Below are positions 1 through 42,657 of a stretch of 42,657 nucleotides of DNA, in pieces. The stretch comes from a virus (taxonomy: Duplodnaviria; Heunggongvirae; Uroviricota; Caudoviricetes), in IMG/VR virus record IMGVR_UViG_2925914267_000007, positions 1 to 42,657 of that record, one strand, 5' to 3'. The notes beneath the pieces are model-generated. The model was not told the DNA's origin and did no database searches. It saw only the letters and a program-made list of their open reading frames with translations. The stretch's first letter is position 1. Every line of letters begins with the position of its first letter. The translations under genes were made by a program, and so were the position numbers.

Positions 1-6
1 AAGAAA

Positions 7-38
7 TAGGGCTTCCACCTGGGAAGCCCTTTCTTTTT
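7..38. terminator. GC-rich hairpin with T-run, bidirectional-looking intrinsic terminator
   Basis: Inverted repeat GGGCTTCC (8-15) / GGAAGCCC (22-29) followed by TTCTTTTT. Confidence 0.4.
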
Positions 39-165
39 ATAGTTCGGCTGTATGTAGGGTACAGCACGATGAATCTGTTAGAGGCGCAATAGTGACAGAT
101 TTGATTATCAATTCCTATTTTGTTCTAAGGATAAAACCTTAGGTTGTGATCATCCGCACAATCCC

Positions 166-408
166 TTAGTAACGCCAGCGGTCATAACGCTGATATTTCG
201 GCACTTTTGGTGCTTTAATCGCCTTAATAACCCACACCACCGCAATCGCCAGTAGTAACCACGGCAGCAACTTAATCATCAATGCCAGCATACCGCCGAG
301 GAACATAATGGCCGTCGCCACAACCAGCGCGGCGATAATGCCCAGCAACGAAACGCCGGTGACCATCAGCATGACAAAAAAGCCAATCACAAAAAGTAGT
401 TCCAGCAT
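166..408 (-). CDS. pspG: phage shock protein G, 80 aa small membrane protein
   Basis: Last 80 aa of the 150-aa ORF (MLELLFVIGFFVML...KYQRYDRWRY) match PspG as I recall it; ATG at 408; hydrophobic. Upstream part of the ORF judged non-coding. Confidence 0.8.
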   Translation of the reverse strand: MLELLFVIGFFVMLMVTGVSLLGIIAALVVATAIMFLGGMLALMIKLLPWLLLAIAVVWVIKAIKAPKVPKYQRYDRWRY

Positions 409-440
409 GATGCACTCCCAAATATGAAATCTCTTGCTGG

Positions 441-460
441 CATTACAAGAATCATGCCAA
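441..460 (-). promoter_or_regulatory. candidate sigma54 promoter for pspG
   Basis: Minus-strand TTGGCATGATTCTTGTAAT resembles a sigma54 -24/-12 element of the psp type, about 30 nt upstream of the pspG start. Confidence 0.4.
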
Positions 461-483
461 AAATAATCTATTGATTTAACAGC

Positions 484-512
484 AAAACGCCCCGCGACGG
501 TGCGCAGGGCGT
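484..512 (-). terminator. intrinsic terminator downstream of dusA
   Basis: Minus-strand hairpin CGCCCTGCG / CGCGGGGCG (one mismatch) followed by TTTTGCT, about 30 nt after the dusA stop. Confidence 0.4.
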
Positions 513-541
513 GGTGAATTTGACTATTTTTTGGTGAAAAG

Positions 542-1579
542 TTAACGCTTATCCGCCACCAGTTTGAGCGCGTGTTCCAGCACATTAATGTCTGCACCCG
601 CTTTATGGGCATTTTCACTTAAATAACGCCGCCACTGCCGCGCGCCAGGAATACCCTGGAACAAGCCCAACATATGCCGGGTAATATGACCGAGATACGT
701 CCCCTGGCTGAGTTCACGCTCAATGTACGGATACATGGCGCGCACTACCGCCACCGGATCGGCATCGATATCCGAGGAACCAAAGATCTCCCGGTCTACC
801 GCCGCCAGAATACCCGGATTCTGATACGCCTCGCGCCCGACCATCACGCCATCCATATGTTGCAGGTGTGCTTTGGCCTCTTCCAGCGACTTGATACCAC
901 CGTTAATCGACATTGTCAGATGCGGAAAGTCACGCTTCAGTTGATACACACGCGGATAATCGAGCGGCGGGATCTCACGGTTTTCTTTCGGACTTAACCC
1001 CGAAAGCCAGGCTTTACGTGCATGGATGATGAACATCTCACACTCGCCTTTGCCGGAAACGGTGTTGATGAAATCGCAGAGAAATTCATAGCTGTCCTGG
1101 TCGTCGATGCCAATACGCGTTTTCACCGTCACCGGAATCGACACCACATCGCGCATCGCTTTCACGCAGTCGGCAACCAGCTGCGCATTACCCATCAGAC
1201 ACGCACCAAACATGCCGTTCTGCACCCGGTCAGACGGGCAGCCGACATTCAGGTTGATCTCATCATATCCACGCGCTTCTGCCAGCTTCGCACACTGTGC
1301 CAGCGCCGCCGGATCGCTACCGCCGAGTTGCAACGCTACCGGATGTTCTTCTTCACTGTACGCCAGGTAATCACCTTTACCGTGAATAATCGCCCCTGTG
1401 GTCACCATTTCGGTATACAGCAACGTATTGCGGGAAAGCAGACGCAAGAAATAGCGGCAATGTCTGTCCGTCCAGTCGAGCATTGGTGCAACGCTAAACC
1501 GACCACTCCAGTGAACGTCAGTTTTTTCAGGCATCACACTGGTTTGATTAATTTTTTGTGTTTCATGATTATCGTGCAT
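542..1579 (-). CDS. dusA: tRNA-dihydrouridine synthase A (TIM-barrel flavoenzyme); N-terminal residues likely supplied by the prophage
   Basis: 345-aa ORF with near full-length identity to DusA as recalled; first ~15 residues ([15 protein letters not shown]) differ from the K-12 form I remember. True start may be an internal Met. Confidence 0.85.
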
Positions 1580-1612
1580 TTTTGAACATTTCAGGCTATT
1601 TTTCTCGCGTTA

Positions 1613-1647
1613 GGTTCCCGCACAGGTTCCCACGTTTTATGGGAACC
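1613..1647. promoter_or_regulatory. GGTTCCC direct repeats plus inverted GGGAACC copy between dusA and int; candidate integrase-binding or int promoter element
   Basis: GGTTCCC at 1613-1619 and 1625-1631, GGGAACC at 1641-1647, in the 88-bp divergent intergenic region. Confidence 0.3.
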
Positions 1648-1667
1648 CGAAATAACGAGGTCGTGTA

Positions 1668-2765
1668 ATGGCGTACTATAACATAGAGAAACGACTAAAA
1701 TCCGATGGCACACCACGCTATCGCTGTAATGTGATTATCAAAGAAAAAGGTGTTATCACTTACAGGGAAAGCAAAACATTCCCTAAACATGCTCATGCCA
1801 AAACATGGGGCACACAGAAAGTGATGGAATTAGATCTATATGGCATTCCATCATCAAATGCAGTTGACGGACTTACAGTCCGTGACTTACTACACAAATA
1901 TTTAAATGACCCAAATGCCGGAGGTAAAGCAGGCCGTACTAAAAGATATGTGCTGGAACTGCTTATGGATAGTGACATCTCCGCGATCAAACTATCTGAA
2001 CTGACAGAAAATGACGTAATTGAACATTGCAGGCTAAGAAACAACGCTGGCGCAGGTCCAGCAACAGTCAGCCACGATGTTAGTTATCTTGGCAGTGTTC
2101 TGGATGCGGCCAAACCTGTATACGGAATTAATTACACATCAAACCCGGCGAAAAGTGCTCGTCCATATCTACTTAAACTTGGTTTGATTGGTAAATCAAA
2201 CCGTCGTAATCGTAGACCAGCATCTGCTGAACTGGACATGCTCATTGAAGGCCTTCAACAACGATCTACTCATAAATGCTCAAAAATTCCGTTCGTTGAT
2301 ATCCTCAAATTTTCTGTATGGTCCTGTATGCGAATCGGAGAAGTATGCCGGTTACGATGGGAAGATCTCGACCAAGAACAAAAATCTATACTCGTAAGAT
2401 ACAGGAAAGATCCACGCAAAAAGGAAGGCAACCACATGAAAGTAGCCTTGCTTGGGGAAGCCTGGGATATCGTCCAACGACAGCCCCAAAAATCGGAATT
2501 CATTTTTCCATATAACAGCACTTCTGTTACTGCGGGATTTCAGAGGGTAAGAAGCAAATTAGGTATTAAGGATCTGCGATACCATGATTTGCGTAGAGAA
2601 GGGGCAAGTCGCTTATTTGAGGCTGGTTTTAGTATTGAGGAAGTCGCCCAGGTTACAGGGCATCGTTCATTAAACGTGCTATGGCAGGTATATACCGAAC
2701 TGTATCCGAAATCTTTACATAATCGTTTTGAAGAGCTCCAAAGGAGCAGAAATAAGACCCCTTGA
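1668..2765 (+). CDS. tyrosine-type site-specific integrase (dusA-associated integrase class)
   Basis: 365 aa, AT-rich; C-terminal YHDLRRE...GHRS...Y motifs typical of tyrosine recombinases; divergent and adjacent to the dusA 5' end. Confidence 0.85.
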   Translation: MAYYNIEKRLKSDGTPRYRCNVIIKEKGVITYRESKTFPKHAHAKTWGTQKVMELDLYGIPSSNAVDGLTVRDLLHKYLNDPNAGGKAGRTKRYVLELLMDSDISAIKLSELTENDVIEHCRLRNNAGAGPATVSHDVSYLGSVLDAAKPVYGINYTSNPAKSARPYLLKLGLIGKSNRRNRRPASAELDMLIEGLQQRSTHKCSKIPFVDILKFSVWSCMRIGEVCRLRWEDLDQEQKSILVRYRKDPRKKEGNHMKVALLGEAWDIVQRQPQKSEFIFPYNSTSVTAGFQRVRSKLGIKDLRYHDLRREGASRLFEAGFSIEEVAQVTGHRSLNVLWQVYTELYPKSLHNRFEELQRSRNKTP

Positions 2766-2826: not shown

Positions 2827-3075
2827 ATGCGTATTGAAATCTGCATAGCCAAAGAAAAAATGACTAAAATGCCAACCGGTGCTGTGGATGCGTTAAAGGA
2901 AGAATTAACCCGACGCATCAGTAAGCGTTATGACGATGTTGAGGTGTTAGTAAAAGCCACCAGCAATGATGGCCTTTCTGTTACACGCACCGCAGATAAG
3001 GATTCTGCAAAAACTTTTGTTCAGGAGACTCTGAAAGATACCTGGGAATCTGCTGACGAGTGGTTTGTTCACTAA
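2827..3075 (+). CDS. DinI-family SOS-response protein
   Basis: 82 aa; MRIEICIAK... and C-terminal [16 protein letters not shown] resemble DinI; preceded by LexA boxes. Confidence 0.75.
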
Positions 3076-3423: not shown

Positions 3424-4119
3424 ATGAAAAAGGAAATACTCAAGGCTCTTTGCCCTACATGCGGTGGGTTACGTAACTGCACTGTGCATGGGAAGCTAAC
3501 CACTAGCTGGGAGGATTCCCAATATCCAGTTTATGGGTACCATTACCATCACCTACTCCAATGCAATGGCTGTGATACTGTCTTCTATCACCACAACGAA
3601 CACTTCAGTGAGCATACTACCCACGAATATCGTGATGGTGAATTTGTAGAAACGCCTATAGATATGATCACTACCTATCCTGCCGCTGAAACATTTCAAG
3701 CTCCGATATGGTTATCCAAGCTTGAATCAGTTGATCGTCAGCTCTTTCAAATATTTAATGAAATGTATTCTTCATATACTTCTGACCATTTCATTCTTTC
3801 GTCCATCGGTTTACGGACGATTTTTGATCGAACTGCTGAACTGTTACAAATTCACCCCGGTTTGCCGCTTGGTGAAAAAGTTGAAAAATTAAAACAAGAT
3901 GGAGTCATAGGCGACACTGAGGCATGCGTTATATCTTCAGTAATTGATGCAGGAAACGCCGCCGCACATCGCAGTTGGAGCCCGAATAAAAGTGAGTTCG
4001 AACAAATGCTAGAAGCTATAGAAAGTTTTGTCCAAAGAACTATCTTGGGCAAAAAATCACTTGAACATATAACCAAACAACTCCCACCTCGGGTTACAAG
4101 ACCTAAAAATAGTGCATAA
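3424..4119 (+). CDS. orphan zinc-ribbon protein with a C-terminal DUF4145-like domain; candidate accessory or defence gene
   Basis: 231 aa, AT-rich; N-terminal CPTCGG...CTVHG and HH..CNGCD Cys/His clusters; C-terminal GNAAAHRSW motif recalled as characteristic of DUF4145. Confidence 0.6.
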   Translation: MKKEILKALCPTCGGLRNCTVHGKLTTSWEDSQYPVYGYHYHHLLQCNGCDTVFYHHNEHFSEHTTHEYRDGEFVETPIDMITTYPAAETFQAPIWLSKLESVDRQLFQIFNEMYSSYTSDHFILSSIGLRTIFDRTAELLQIHPGLPLGEKVEKLKQDGVIGDTEACVISSVIDAGNAAAHRSWSPNKSEFEQMLEAIESFVQRTILGKKSLEHITKQLPPRVTRPKNSA

Positions 4120-4145: not shown

Positions 4146-4738
4146 TTATGGTTTACTTGCTACAGGGAATTTTTTATACACCGTTGAAATACCCAGATCA
4201 TAAATCAGTGCGACTTGCTGCTGATATATTCCCGATTCAATCAACCTGCCAGCCTGCCCCCATTGTTCTACTGTCAGCTTTGGCTTTCGCCCACCGTTCC
4301 TCCCTTCTTGTCGTGCTGCGGCAAAGCCGCCCTAGTACGTTCGACAATAAGCTCTCGCTCCATTTCAGCCAAGGCACCCATCACATGAAAGAAAAAGCGC
4401 CCCATTGGTGTGCTGGTATCAATAGCATCCGTCAGGCTGCGAAAATTAACGCCACGTTCGCGCAACTCTTCCACCAGCACGACAAGATGCCGCATACTGC
4501 GCCCCAGTCGGTCCAGTTTCCAGACCACCAGCGTGTCACCTGCCGATAATGTCCTGAGCAGCTTTTTCAGTCCTGGTCTGTCGGACTTTGTACCGCTTAT
4601 CTTGTCTTCAAAAATCAGCTCACATCCTGCACAGTTCAGCGCATTACGTTGTAGATCGGTATTCTGGTCATTTGTTGATACACGTACATAGCCAATAAGT
4701 ATGTTAAATCCCCCTGGTAAAAGCAGGAATGATGCCAT
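4146..4738 (-). pseudogene. Gin/Pin/Hin-family serine DNA invertase, decayed (start codon ATA plus frameshift)
   Basis: Catalytic domain (ILIGYVRVSTNDQ...ERTRA) in one frame 4274-4738, HTH domain (AAARQEGRNGGRKPKLT...VALIYDLGISTVYKKFP) in another frame down to the TAA at 4146-4148; canonical Met codon reads ATA; apparent 1-nt loss near 4326-4331. Confidence 0.6.
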
Positions 4739-4756
4739 TTGCTTGTTATTTCTTCA

Positions 4757-4782
4757 TTTTCATAAACGTTGGTTTGGGAGAA
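4757..4782. repeat. left 26-bp crossover site (gix/hix-like) of the invertible tail-fibre segment
   Basis: Reverse complement TTCTCCCAAACCAACGTTTATGAAAA matches the right site at 19 of 26 positions with central AA; lies just upstream of the invertase. Confidence 0.6.
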
Positions 4783-5238
4783 ACGATAAATAAAGCCTCC
4801 GGAGCTATGCAGAAATCGGCTAATGGAGCTGATATTTCTGATGTATCAGCCTTCCGAAATGCGCTCCAGTTAGGGACCGCCGCAACACGAGATGTTGGAG
4901 CAGATAATGCCTCGAAGTTACTGGATTTAGACAGCTTCAGGTCAATGATGTCAGGGAATGGCTACATCTACATTCCATGCATTGCGACGACAGGAAACCC
5001 GGTGAAACTTATGTTGCAGTGGGGAACGGTGGCAACACAAAAGGGAGCTGATGCTGGATATGCCTTACCATTTGCTTTTCCCTATGCAGGCTTATTTGCG
5101 ACCGGAAACCGTGGAACATCTGGCTACAATGCCGCGATGAATGTGCGTATTGCCAGCAGAACGCATATCAGTATTCAGAACTGGTCGCCATCCGGAGAGG
5201 GCACCGAAGATTGTTGTTTTATCGCGCTGGGGTATTAA
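4771..5238 (+). CDS. silent alternative tail-fibre C-terminal segment, expressed only after inversion
   Basis: Open frame without its own start; junction encodes VGLGE, mirroring the LGLGE junction in the expressed fibre. Confidence 0.5.
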   Translation, partial: GLGETINKASGAMQKSANGADISDVSAFRNALQLGTAATRDVGADNASKLLDLDSFRSMMSGNGYIYIPCIATTGNPVKLMLQWGTVATQKGADAGYALPFAFPYAGLFATGNRGTSGYNAAMNVRIASRTHISIQNWSPSGEGTEDCCFIALGY

Positions 5239-5240
5239 GA

Positions 5241-5657
5241 ATGAATAAATTTTATAAAGGCTCTTTCTATCCGAAAGCACTAAAAGAGGTATATATCAGC
5301 GCCGGTTCATGGCCTGAAAATGGCGTTGATGTTGATGATGAAACAATGGCAATTTACACAGGCGTAGCGCCACAAGGCAAAACGCTGGGGGCTGATAAAA
5401 ATGGTAATCCTGCGTGGATTGATATCCCGCCACTCTCCGCTGAACAACAGATTATTCAGGCTGAACAGAAAAGAACGGTATTGCGCTCTATGGCTGATAA
5501 GGAAATAGTCTGGAGACAGGATGCTTTTGATGCGGAAATCGCGACGGCAGAAGAAACCGCCGCGTTATCTGAATGGAAAAAATACCGAGTCTTGCTGATG
5601 CGCGTTGATACATCAAATCCCGTCTGGCCTACGCCTCCGGGGGAGCAGGCCAATTGA
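5241..5657 (+). CDS. tail fibre assembly protein, alternative copy
   Basis: 138 aa; Tfa-like sequence ending VWPTPP; 3' end overlaps the convergent Tfa gene. Confidence 0.6.
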   Translation: MNKFYKGSFYPKALKEVYISAGSWPENGVDVDDETMAIYTGVAPQGKTLGADKNGNPAWIDIPPLSAEQQIIQAEQKRTVLRSMADKEIVWRQDAFDAEIATAEETAALSEWKKYRVLLMRVDTSNPVWPTPPGEQAN

Positions 5658-6249
5658 TATCCGGCGCGGTGCTGGTATCAGTTGCCGTCACCGCGTCAAT
5701 GTAATCCAGCACGACGTTAAGCCGGGTGGTTTCTGTCTGCGTCAGTTTTCGCCCGGCCTGCAATTTCAGTTGAATCAGATTAATGGAAGCCATTGCAGTA
5801 TCAATCAGCGACTGGCGTTGTGTTTCTGCCGCTTCTACAGCGGCACGATGTTGCGCATCTGTATCGGTCACCCATTCCTCACCATCCCATTTATCGTATG
5901 GCGTTAACGGTGCGACAGTGGTTATGTTTTCAGGGTAATCACCCGGAGTGGCAATTTCTGCTGCCTCACGGGTTTCTGTGTTATAGACTGTCTCACCCCG
6001 ATGGTCCGGCACATACTCCCACGCGGTCAGGTCAGCAGTGCGGCAAATCATATAACCAGCCCGCCTTTCCCCGGGGGCATCAGTGCATGAATGTGCAGGA
6101 AGGCCAACGCCCACAGCCAGATATTCGGTTGACGTGCAAAGGTATTCCCGCGTCTTATTATCGTAGCTGTGGACAACAACCTCTCCTGCAACTGTTGCCA
6201 GCCGCGATTCATTCAGCACCGCTGTAGTCATGGTGTTCTTGCTCATCAT
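5629..6249 (-). CDS. tail fibre assembly protein, expressed copy
   Basis: 206 aa; Tfa-like, ending INWPAPPEA; immediately downstream of the tail fibre gene. Confidence 0.7.
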
Positions 6250-41331: not shown

Positions 41332-41367
41332 TTTTCCCGGGTGCAGCCGGTTTTGATGGAGAAAATT

Positions 41368-41640
41368 ATGAACACCTTGTTTTTACTGATGGCTGAATTC
41401 AATACCCCAAACATTGAGCTGTCAGCTGTATGCCAAAAGTATTTCGGTATGAGCCCTAACACAGCAGAAGCGAAAGCAAATGCATGCCAATTGCCGATCC
41501 CGACTTATCGTGTTGGTACATCACAGAAAGCAAAGCGCTGCATCAACATTCAGGATCTTGCTGAATATATAGATAAACGGCGTGAAGAAGGCAGAATTGA
41601 ATGGGAGAGGGTAAGAACAAATAGGAAAATAAATAACTAA
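41368..41640 (+). CDS. PrtN-family small DNA-binding protein; candidate excisionase or activator
   Basis: Start MNTLFLLMAEF with SD GGAG; family assignment from memory. Confidence 0.4.
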   Translation: MNTLFLLMAEFNTPNIELSAVCQKYFGMSPNTAEAKANACQLPIPTYRVGTSQKAKRCINIQDLAEYIDKRREEGRIEWERVRTNRKINN

Positions 41641-41644
41641 TCTC

Positions 41645-41674
41645 ACAAAAAACCCGCTTCGGCGGGTTAGTTTT
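41645..41674. terminator. bidirectional intrinsic terminator between convergent genes
   Basis: AAAAAA then stem AACCCGC-ttcg-GCGGGTT then TTTT; overlaps the stop codon of the YafO-like gene. Confidence 0.6.
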
Positions 41675-42101
41675 CATCTTTATAATTCTGGGCAATTCGC
41701 GCCAGATAGCTCATCACATCATGTTTTCTTGCTTTTTCATGTGCATCGGGATACATAATAGCAATGAGTGAATATTTATTCTCATAAAGCTCACCTTGGA
41801 CATACACAAGACAAGCATCATTATCAGGATCACCTTTCTTGCAGACCCTATCCGGTTGTGGAAGTTTCTCGGGAAACTTGTTTGGCGGTAGACAAAGATG
41901 GATATGCATCAACCCAGCCCGAAAAGCACCATAGGGCTGAGTATACGCAACGTCCCTACCGAAATAATGCGGAAGCTCACCGGTTGCTTTGTATCTCTTG
42001 AAATCATCAATGATAGAAGACTCTAGCTCCGGGAATTTGAGAAAAACTTCATCAAAAAATTCAGCTCTAGTTTCTGGATTAATAGAGACTTCTAGATGCA
42101 T
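41667..42101 (-). CDS. YafO-family toxin-like protein
   Basis: 144 aa; HIHL...PFP...LVYVQGE...LIAIMYPDAHEKAR parallels YafO as recalled; AT-rich. Confidence 0.55.
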   Translation of the reverse strand: MHLEVSINPETRAEFFDEVFLKFPELESSIIDDFKRYKATGELPHYFGRDVAYTQPYGAFRAGLMHIHLCLPPNKFPEKLPQPDRVCKKGDPDNDACLVYVQGELYENKYSLIAIMYPDAHEKARKHDVMSYLARIAQNYKDEN

Positions 42102-42117
42102 GGTCGTCCGCTATCGG

Positions 42118-42657
42118 TTAGTGAAATTGCATCGATTTTAGCTTATTTGATGTGTGACTAGCTAGTGCTGCAATTCCAGCAAGATCCGCGCGCCCGCTAA
42201 ACGTAACAGTTTCTTTAAATATGCTCTTTATGTAATTGTTAAGGCGAGTGACAGATGAGCGAGCTTTAGCAATATGACGCCAGTAAACCTTCAGTTCTGA
42301 CCTGATAAATTCAGGCAGAGGCGATTCAATTGTACGCTTCACTTCTTCTTCAAAAGCACGCAGGAACATTTCGCATGCCTCTGTCGTATCTGTCCCGTTT
42401 TTGGAAACAAACTCGCGAGCATCTTGGCTATTAAGATCAATCAAACAGATATAGTAGTCATCTGCTGCAATTGTTAACTTTTGCAAGATCTCCTTACCCT
42501 CTTCCATTCTGCGTGAGAATTCCTCAACAGAAGGAGAGTACTCAAAAGGTTTAGCAATCACAGGGGCTGGCTGGATGATGAACTCCTGCGCCATAGCAGC
42601 AGGACAAGCCAGAGGCCCGCACAATGCAGCAAAAGTAATGGCGTTAAACGGATTCAT
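42118..42657 (-). CDS. AT-rich hypothetical protein with signal-peptide-like N-terminus, upstream partner of the YafO-like gene
   Basis: 179 aa; ATG is the last three bases of the window; ITFAALCGPLACPAAMA hydrophobic start; 16-bp spacer to the toxin-like gene. Confidence 0.5.
   Translation of the reverse strand: MNPFNAITFAALCGPLACPAAMAQEFIIQPAPVIAKPFEYSPSVEEFSRRMEEGKEILQKLTIAADDYYICLIDLNSQDAREFVSKNGTDTTEACEMFLRAFEEEVKRTIESPLPEFIRSELKVYWRHIAKARSSVTRLNNYIKSIFKETVTFSGRADLAGIAALASHTSNKLKSMQFH

Follow-up and report, generated by a model that had tools for sequence, protein, structure and literature searches.

The window analysed here, by which we mean the whole 42,657-nucleotide stretch of a tailed-virus record (IMG/VR IMGVR_UViG_2925914267_000007), carries near its left end a dusA gene and, facing away from it, a gene for a tyrosine integrase. 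The following features lie at this junction.

542 to 1579, minus strand: dusA, a 345-aa ORF (Pfam Dus, E = 2e-104; NCBIfam DusA)
542 to 1475, minus strand: host-derived dusA body, codons 36-345 plus the stop codon, collinear with K-12 dusA
1476 to 1483, strand not applicable: att core, the identity block TCGAGCAT, common to attL, attR, attB and attP
1484 to 1534, minus strand: core-proximal, element-side dusA 5ʹ segment of 51 bp with 0 differences from K-12
1535 to 1579, minus strand: distal, phage-type stretch of the donated dusA 5ʹ end, with its ATG at 1577-1579 and ten differences from K-12
1580 to 1667, strand not applicable: divergent intergenic region (P' arm), phage-derived, including the int ribosome-binding site
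1668 to 2765, plus strand: dusA-associated tyrosine integrase (DAI), 365 aa (PF00589, E = 1e-20)

A preliminary description of this DNA had placed dusA and the integrase gene in divergent orientation with 88 bp between them, and the gap from 1580 to 1667 is indeed exactly 88 bp. It had also stated that the first ~15 DusA residues differ from the K-12 form. Alignment to the prophage-free dusA of K-12 confirms a variant 5ʹ end, with identity extending up to position 1534. Window positions 1-1534 show 13 scattered differences from K-12. Within dusA, none of these falls in 1368-1534, whereas ten differences fall in 1535-1572, such that ten changes within 38 nt follow none in 167 nt. The encoded protein carries G3D, S5H, M7T and A15V, and the unrelated T271I besides. 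The extent of the variation was therefore described correctly, but only four residues within it are changed. As a measure of what the element donated, 15 residues is too few, because the phage contributes 35 codons including the core (about 104 nt, 1476/1484-1579).

The integrase residues R222, H306-x-x-R309, H332 and Y342, which constitute an RHRH tetrad and its nucleophilic tyrosine, are invariant in alignments of 5 and of 77 sequences. The protein is 98.4-99.2% identical to the integrases of mEp460, SKA5, Lys8385Vzw, PhiR40_1, 1720a-02 and phiSTEC1575-Stx2k (98.9% over 365 aa for phage 1720a-02). A PDB sequence search with the protein produced matches confined to the catalytic domains of XerA-type recombinases.

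The att core, which the preliminary description had been unable to pinpoint, can be placed by comparing junctions. Our table of junctions comprises the K-12 attB, attL and attR of the lysogens MB53, TF5 and RM8082, attP of phages mEp460 and SKA5, and the window; far junctions were compared in the complete lysogens OHT76-1, TF5, MB53 and RM8082. The sole block common to attB, attP, attL and attR is TCGAGCAT, at 1476-1483 in the window. The attB site is arranged as ...GTCCAG / TCGAGCAT / TGGTGCAACGC... and the attP site as ...CATCCTA / TCGAGCAT / AGGAGCAATGC..., and the canonical attL (MB53, TF5) joins a host left side to a phage right side, with attR joining phage on the left to host on the right. 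Judged by this comparison, recombination occurs within the block TCGAGCA(T), 1476-1483, and the 7-bp overlap is probably TCGAGCA (1476-1482). In attP this heptamer lies between the inverted half-sites ATCCTA and TAGGAG, and inverted half-sites around a 7-bp overlap represent the classic core layout. The core encodes Met33-Leu34-Asp35 of the conserved APMLDW motif.

This placement agrees both with experiments on phage 1720a-02 and with the att motif of the integrase family. For 1720a-02, insertion 100 bp into dusA was established by PCR, sequencing and deep sequencing of the junctions, attP was found to be regenerated, and a seven-base core was located inside TCCAGTCGAGCATGGGAGC (PMC6328086). 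The DAI family was described by Farrugia et al. 2015 and has an att motif of 21 bp (PMC4482086), which corresponds to about 1470-1490 in the window and encloses the core. The attL repeat TCCAGTCGAGCATTGGTGC is present at 1471-1489. We also scanned IMG/VR with the integrase alignment and recovered 52 viral contigs, 48 of them being attL junctions; all of their integrases are of the E. coli type (88-99% identical), with no new diversity. Phage-type polymorphisms start right after TCGAGCAT in 47 of these 48 junctions, and the lone exception is chimeric in the same manner as the window.

To the right of the core, the prophage has an SfV-like backbone. Positions 1476-25000 match phage SfV over 61% of their length at 97.6% identity, match the structural module shared by SfV, SfII and SfIV at about 97% identity, and also match phage SKA5, integrase included. 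The right part of the window is most similar to strain TF5, with which it is collinear to the last base. Two further features lie at this end.

41341 to 41640, plus strand: PrtN-family RDF, a homologue of RdfN (PF11112 PyocinActivator, E = 4e-24)
41667 to 42657, minus strand: final genes of the prophage on the attR side, one for a YafO-family toxin and a 179-aa ORF ending at the edge of the window

Neither a direct-repeat search nor one allowing 3 mismatches found a second att copy in the window, and attR must therefore lie outside it, as the preliminary description had held. In TF5 the attR core is located 204 bp past the position equivalent to 42657. By extension from this near-identical lysogen, attR of the window prophage would be found about 204 bp beyond 42657, which gives a prophage of about 41.4 kb. 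We likewise infer its attR junction and P arm from TF5, MB53 and RM8082. In each of these three complete lysogens, a displaced native dusA 5ʹ fragment is present at the far end; there, as at the far junction of OHT76-1, the RefSeq annotation lists a dusA pseudogene of 105 nt ('missing C-terminus') beside a DUF2713 gene.

The true start of the PrtN/RdfN homologue is likely to be the ATG at 41368, and a PrtN family protein is annotated at the equivalent position in both TF5 and MB53. Excision of a dusA-specific element has been found to require RdfN, and RdfN and Int together suffice for it (PMC8409611). The protein encoded at 41341-41640 would, in the same manner, direct excision of the window prophage.

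Free phage genomes reveal what the element brings to the junction. Their attP holds an in-frame 35-codon dusA mimic that is contiguous with the other phage arm, and an intact attP is present in sequenced virion or induced phage genomes carrying the same module (mEp460, SKA5). The canonical phage mimic is about 83% identical to K-12 DNA over 104 nt. Adjacent to it, the intergenic sequence corresponding to 1580-1667 is identical or nearly so in the free phages mEp460, SKA5 and Lys8385Vzw, and is unrelated to the sequence upstream of K-12 dusA.

Our reading, which includes inferred steps and to which we assign a probability of roughly 93%, is that the window contains attL of a ~41.4-kb SfV-like temperate myovirus integrated by a DAI into codons 33-35 of E. 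coli dusA. Sequence comparison shows that all of the DNA to the right of the core derives from the phage P' arm, namely 32 further mimic codons, the divergent regulatory stretch of 88 bp and the int gene. Because this arm brings the remaining codons, dusA is rebuilt as an intact 345-codon ORF, and in the related lysogens the original 5ʹ fragment is stranded at attR, a site that here lies just outside the window. The earlier proposal that a dusA-specific integrase provided a new DusA N-terminus is thus supported by the identity of the integrase and by the attP, attR and attL junctions.

Expression of dusA after integration would depend on phage signals within 1580-1667. In the Vibrio element IMEVchUSA3, lacZ fusions revealed a new dusA promoter, and a new N-terminus was also demonstrated (PMC8409611). 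By analogy, a replacement dusA promoter presumably resides in 1580-1667. A scan of 1400-1800 for sigma-70 promoters and terminators detected nothing, including no consensus promoter, and therefore we draw no promoter claim from the sequence.

Only residues 3, 5, 7 and 15 differ from K-12, leaving 31 of 35 residues in the donated N-terminus identical to the native one, because the window attL is chimeric. Canonical phage arms differ from K-12 at 9 positions within 1484-1534, the segment that is of host type here, whereas 1535-1579 matches the phage arm of SKA5 and MB53 save for one private SNP at 1538. Such chimeras are rare: of about 747 int-linked junctions from complete genomes in RefSeq, four records match at 99% identity or more, and one of the 52 IMG/VR viral contigs is of this type. 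The identical chimera occurs in attL of RM8082, where it is associated with an unrelated lambdoid prophage. The attR of RM8082 is wholly of host type, and thus the patch is non-reciprocal with respect to the present integration. The presence of one chimeric arm on two unrelated backbones, SfV-like here and lambdoid in RM8082, suggests that it travels with the phage attP. Most likely, the patch arose by an earlier homologous exchange between a phage mimic and a host-type copy and is now carried in attP. A RecA-type exchange of this kind would have replaced 51 bp of the mimic, after which the phage attP would share about 59 bp with attB rather than 8 bp. Against such an exchange, the reciprocal 'scar' that it should leave, an empty dusA gene with a phage-type proximal patch, was not found in the 5426 E. 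coli genomes searched, in which the best full-length match reached 95.2%, just one mismatch fewer than the K-12 type.

Two other explanations for the junction need to be weighed against integrase-mediated insertion. The differences at the 5ʹ end of dusA might be viewed as ordinary allelic polymorphism, the prophage merely residing upstream of an intact native gene, and megablast does carry the K-12 alignment to window position 1582 at 98.5% identity overall. However, polymorphism does not lead one to expect the abrupt clustering of differences described above, nor that free phage genomes physically hold, beside their P arm, the variant 5ʹ sequence as far as the core, nor that lysogens contain another native 5ʹ fragment in a displaced position. 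This explanation is refuted by comparison of the attP and attR sites, and we give it next to no credence. It is also improbable, albeit not to the same degree, that the junction was made by homologous recombination within the ~100 bp of dusA homology rather than by the integrase. A single crossover near 1534/1535 predicts exactly what is observed in the window, which is identical to the host up to 1534 and of phage type from 1535. Yet a reciprocal crossover should place a phage-type patch at attR, whereas attR of RM8082 is fully of host type. In addition, the sharing of one chimeric arm by two unrelated phage backbones suggests normal integration at the core, and 47 of the 48 attL junctions (all but the chimera) change type at the core.

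Three copies of GGTTCCC are present in the intergenic region, one of them inverted.

1613 to 1619, plus strand: P'1, putative arm-type site GGTTCCC, the 8-mer beginning at +136 from the core start
1625 to 1631, plus strand: P'2, putative arm-type site GGTTCCC, at offset +148 with 12-bp spacing from P'1
1641 to 1647, minus strand: P'3, putative inverted arm-type site, reading GGGAACC on the plus strand, at offset +164

These are three of eight copies in the whole 42.6-kb window, in which about 5 would be expected, and GGTTCCC also occurs in the other attP arm (GGTTCCCAATAGGCTCCC). The preliminary description had guessed that the repeats are integrase or regulatory sites. To compare them among relatives, repeat positions were measured relative to the first core base in six elements whose two arms were both available and which carry five different motifs.

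mEp460 and SKA5: Int 98-99% identical to that of the window, motif GGTTCCC
Yersinia phage YeP1: Int 68% identical, motif AGCACCCC
'Elizabethkingia' phage EKP1: Int 67% identical, motif GTACACC
Salinivibrio phage SMHB1: Int 56% identical, motif AGTCTCCC
Vibrio non-tailed phage PE001: Int 55% identical, motif AGTACG

Repeats are located at -61/-50 and at +136/+148 in all six elements (+147 in SMHB1), the +136 offset of the window being shared by the element-specific repeats of YeP1, EKP1, SMHB1 and PE001. The offset from the core is conserved even though the int ATG lies at distances that differ by 20 nt (arms of 172-192 nt). An inverted third copy is found at +164 in the four enterobacterial-type elements. 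The P' pattern is repeated in chromosomal attL sites from Mixta, Morganella and Xenorhabdus (L145, L151, L156 and L167), and L145 and L156 also have the inverted +164 copy, as do YeP1 and EKP1. More distantly, Pseudomonas phage E220 and Burkholderia phage BcepIL02, whose integrases are about 35% identical, carry TGCTAC repeats in both arms and use the core TCCATCAT, which mimics APMMD. Under a strict criterion, which asks for two exact copies of a 6-mer spaced 9-14 nt in the P arm and at least two copies in P', four of the six lineages carry repeats, as against no more than 5 of 2000 shuffles in each.

The integrase is predicted to have a domain suited to binding such sites. An AF2 model built from the 77-sequence alignment (mean pLDDT 87; a single-sequence model with pLDDT 42 was discarded) places strands at residues 2-10, 16-26 and 29-38 and a helix at 41-58, with pLDDT 83-93 across residues 2-58. 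A low-confidence linker (59-64) and then the core-binding and catalytic domains follow. In Foldseek searches with this predicted model, matches include Tn1549 Int and full-length lambda Int over 366-370 columns, these being whole-chain alignments with large rmsd. Pfam searches with residues 1-81 returned no family, arm-binding families included, at E<=10. Between lineages, the N-terminal and core-binding parts of Int are more divergent (49-51% mean identity) than the catalytic domain (73%).

The best reading of the GGTTCCC repeats, supported by the comparative evidence and by the structural model, is that they probably serve as arm-type sites of a heterobivalent integrase. The catalytic and core-binding domains would act at ATCCTA-TCGAGCA-TAGGAG, while the N-terminal three-strand-plus-helix domain would bind two GGTTCCC sites in the P arm (-61/-50) and three in P' (+136/+148/+164). 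Alternatively, a different protein, for instance RdfN/PrtN or a regulator of divergent int and dusA promoters, might use the repeats as operators or binding sites. Their location within the 88-bp divergent region, shortly before the int ribosome-binding site, would suit this role, as would the operator-like inversion of the third copy. Moreover, RdfN covaries with the element just as Int does, and therefore covariation alone cannot distinguish between these two proteins as the binder. Nevertheless, the motif recurs in the other attP arm, which in the prophage is about 41 kb distant, at fixed -61/-50 positions in all six elements, and it is the distance to the core, rather than to the int start, that is maintained. 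The 2 + 3 arrangement on two arms also parallels P1-P2/P'1-P'3 of lambda, and the Int model has an N-terminal domain of a suitable DNA-binding type. Binding by another protein instead of Int appears unlikely. We found no description of a fixed arm-site architecture for dusA integrases in the searchable literature.

Lambda Int is heterobivalent and uses the arm-type sites P1, P2 and P'1-3. The window system resembles lambda in its 7-bp overlap between inverted core half-sites, in its two plus three arm repeats, in its separate small RDF and, as modelled, in an N-terminal beta-sheet-plus-helix domain on a flexible linker. As for differences from lambda, sequence homology is undetectable in the N-terminal domain (no Pfam hit), the binding of the repeats is putative, and the DAI target is the 5ʹ end of a protein-coding gene that the element must rebuild.

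Among known elements, the published DAI elements (PMC4482086) share with the window an RHRH/Y tyrosine recombinase gene divergent from and adjoining the dusA 5ʹ end, a semi-conserved att repeat in the APMLDW-coding region, a replacement dusA 5ʹ end supplied by the element, and a PrtN homologue. The window accordingly presents a recombinase tetrad, a dusA-adjacent int gene, a frame-restoring 5ʹ end and a PrtN-type RDF at the opposite end, and differs in nothing essential, except that its attL is chimeric with 51 bp of the donated segment being of host type. Phage 1720a-02 (Phi-stx2dact, an Stx2 phage; Citrobacter rodentium; PMC6328086), mEp460, SKA5 and Lys8385Vzw have the same core, P' arm and phage-borne dusA' ORF, and 1720a-02 integrates at the same 100 bp into dusA. 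Those four are lambdoid siphoviruses, whereas the window represents an SfV-like myovirus, and thus to judge from sequence the recombination module has evidently been exchanged between phage backbones. IMEVchUSA3 and the dusA-specific SGI1-like Vibrio elements (Durand et al. 2021, PMC8409611) use the same target, can use E. coli dusA as attB, and employ the PrtN homologue RdfN as a demonstrated RDF. However, they are mobilisable islands driven by IncC plasmids rather than phages, and the N-terminus that they supply is 61% identical to the native one, compared with 31 of 35 residues in the window. SXT/R391 ICEs integrate into the 5ʹ end of prfC, but both the integrase family and the target gene differ from those of the window.

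Integration into the dusA 5ʹ end is therefore correctly recognized and already known, since the phenomenon has been published, verified experimentally with a near-identical integrase, and is common: an int-linked dusA junction is present in 741 of 5426 complete E. coli genomes (about one in seven). What is added here is the precise placement of the core, the true length of dusA that the phage donates, the uncommon chimeric arm, the location of attR, the RDF and the conserved arm-site geometry. For routine annotation, dusA in this strain begins with phage sequence, and the prophage boundaries are at 1476-1483 and about 200 bp past the window. The fixed geometry of arm sites offers a precise, sequence-independent means of delimiting dusA-specific elements, which could be of modest use, and a testable model of intasome assembly for a widespread integrase family.

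Two types of dusA 5ʹ end exist among E. coli strains. About a fifth of the genomes (e.g. EC8) have a shorter dusA start, MPAESHTVYPAYRFSIAPMLD, which departs from the K-12 type right after TCGAGCAT and is accompanied by the absence of the DUF2713 gene between dusA and zur.

We collected dusA loci from other bacteria by a search of genome contigs with DusA. Among the matches listed, which comprise 80 species-level loci, Enterobacter, Kluyvera, Pseudescherichia and Phytobacter typically have short dusA starts of this kind. K-12-like starts of 35 codons (MH[EDQ]N...) are found in six of the eight listed loci that have an adjacent integrase or integrase remnant, the exceptions being Grimontia (L170) and Vibrio (L174). 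As a working hypothesis drawn from these sequences, this distribution suggests that the 'native' 5ʹ end of K-12 (MHGNSEM..., 35 codons, followed by DUF2713 genes) may itself be the relic of an older element. If so, the phylogroup-B2 type (MPAESHTVYPAYRFSI...), which resembles that of Enterobacter and Kluyvera, would be ancestral. The matches listed include no Escherichia, Salmonella or Citrobacter, and the ancestral E. coli type is consequently judged from more distant genera. Upstream of K-12 dusA, a search produced no integrase remnant or att duplicate in support of the relic, with integrase similarity there falling short of significance (blastn E=0.2-0.8, tblastn E>1, global alignment z about 2.7). 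The relic is also disfavoured by some 'native' dusA genes of Yersinia, whose starts likewise begin with MHE.

A broader proposal would unite these observations, holding that DAIs are heterobivalent with a fixed attP geometry, that mimic and chromosome exchange sequence in both directions, and that the K-12 5ʹ end is a DAI fossil. We advance this combination tentatively, rating it slightly short of an even chance. Element-specific arm repeats (-61/-50, +136/+148) would co-evolve with the divergent N-terminal domain of Int, and homologous exchange would move sequence both ways, yielding chimeric attP and attL arms like that of the window. A heterobivalent DAI contrasts with the published phylogeny, which places DAIs nearest to the arm-less Rci shufflon recombinases. 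The chimeric arm, considered alongside the existence of two dusA 5ʹ types in E. coli, suggests that phages passing through this site time and again have rewritten the beginning of a conserved housekeeping gene.

The 5ʹ end of dusA occurs as two types in E. coli, being shorter and different in phylogroup-B2-type strains (MPAESHTVYPAYRFSIAPMLD; strain EC8 L002:4476-4625 versus K-12 L001:2976-3440). The att core, TCGAGCAT, is the exact point after which the B2-type gene departs from the K-12 type, and the counterpart of this divergence in the window extends from position 1476 onward. B2-type strains are without the DUF2713 gene, and homology between EC8 and K-12 resumes upstream of zur. The dusA starts of Enterobacter and Kluyvera are similar to the short B2-type start, whereas the K-12-type start resembles the 35-codon MH.N starts that integrated elements supply. 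Given this latter resemblance between sequences, the K-12-type 5ʹ end may be a fossil left by an older dusA-targeting element.

The core itself is not invariant, as the variants TCCAGCAT, TCCAACAT or TCAAGCAT are present in four chromosomal attL sites (L151, L156, L167 and L169) from species of Morganella and Xenorhabdus and from the metagenome-assembled genome of an unclassified member of the Pseudomonadota. Variation at these sites follows the Leu codon that the host uses in APMLD, and the core of Pseudomonas and Burkholderia phages is TCCATCAT (APMMD). In the deposited circular genome of phage Lys8385Vzw (MT225100.1; L006:1801-1816), the 8-bp core appears as a tandem duplicate, TCGAGCATTCGAGCAT. 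This duplication is most simply an artefact of keeping both att cores when the prophage was cut out, and it incidentally delimits the same core boundaries.

The following features of the prophage are given with their positions in the window:

2827-3075, dinI
3424-4119, DUF4145-domain gene, between dinI and the invertase
4274-6249, serine invertase and tail-fibre region
41667-42657, YafO-family toxin (PF13957) and adjacent 179-aa ORF, in the cargo position between rdfN (the PrtN-family RDF gene) and attR

The DUF4145-domain gene is missing from the otherwise similar prophage of lysogen MB53, and 3424-4119 is therefore a variable cargo slot adjoining int. A second such slot, 41667-42657, is located at the opposite prophage end, where a Panacea-domain gene set is carried by the lysogens MB53 and OHT76-1, and yet another set by the free phage mEp460. 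The region 4274-6249 probably represents an invertible host-range segment of the Gin/Hin type with a truncated invertase. Its serine invertase ORF encodes 154 aa comprising only the resolvase N-domain (187 aa in the MB53 homologue), and is adjoined by pairs of tail-fibre C-terminal and tail-fibre-assembly genes in opposite orientations. One weak inverted repeat (4291-4305/5018-5032) is also present.

Within the early/replication region of the prophage, two 39-nt direct repeats (GTGAAT...CTGCAC; 33721-33825) are spaced 66 nt apart and are 82% identical, possibly representing iterons or internally repetitive coding sequence.

‘Elizabethkingia phage EKP1’ (OM284015.1; L013) carries a dusA-associated integrase (DAI) with 67% identity to the E. 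coli protein, and also encodes a dusA mimic with an MHQN... start, DinI and PrtN, all of which are typical of enterobacterial elements. By contrast, DAIs have been reported only from Proteobacteria. The Bacteroidota host stated for EKP1 looks doubtful.
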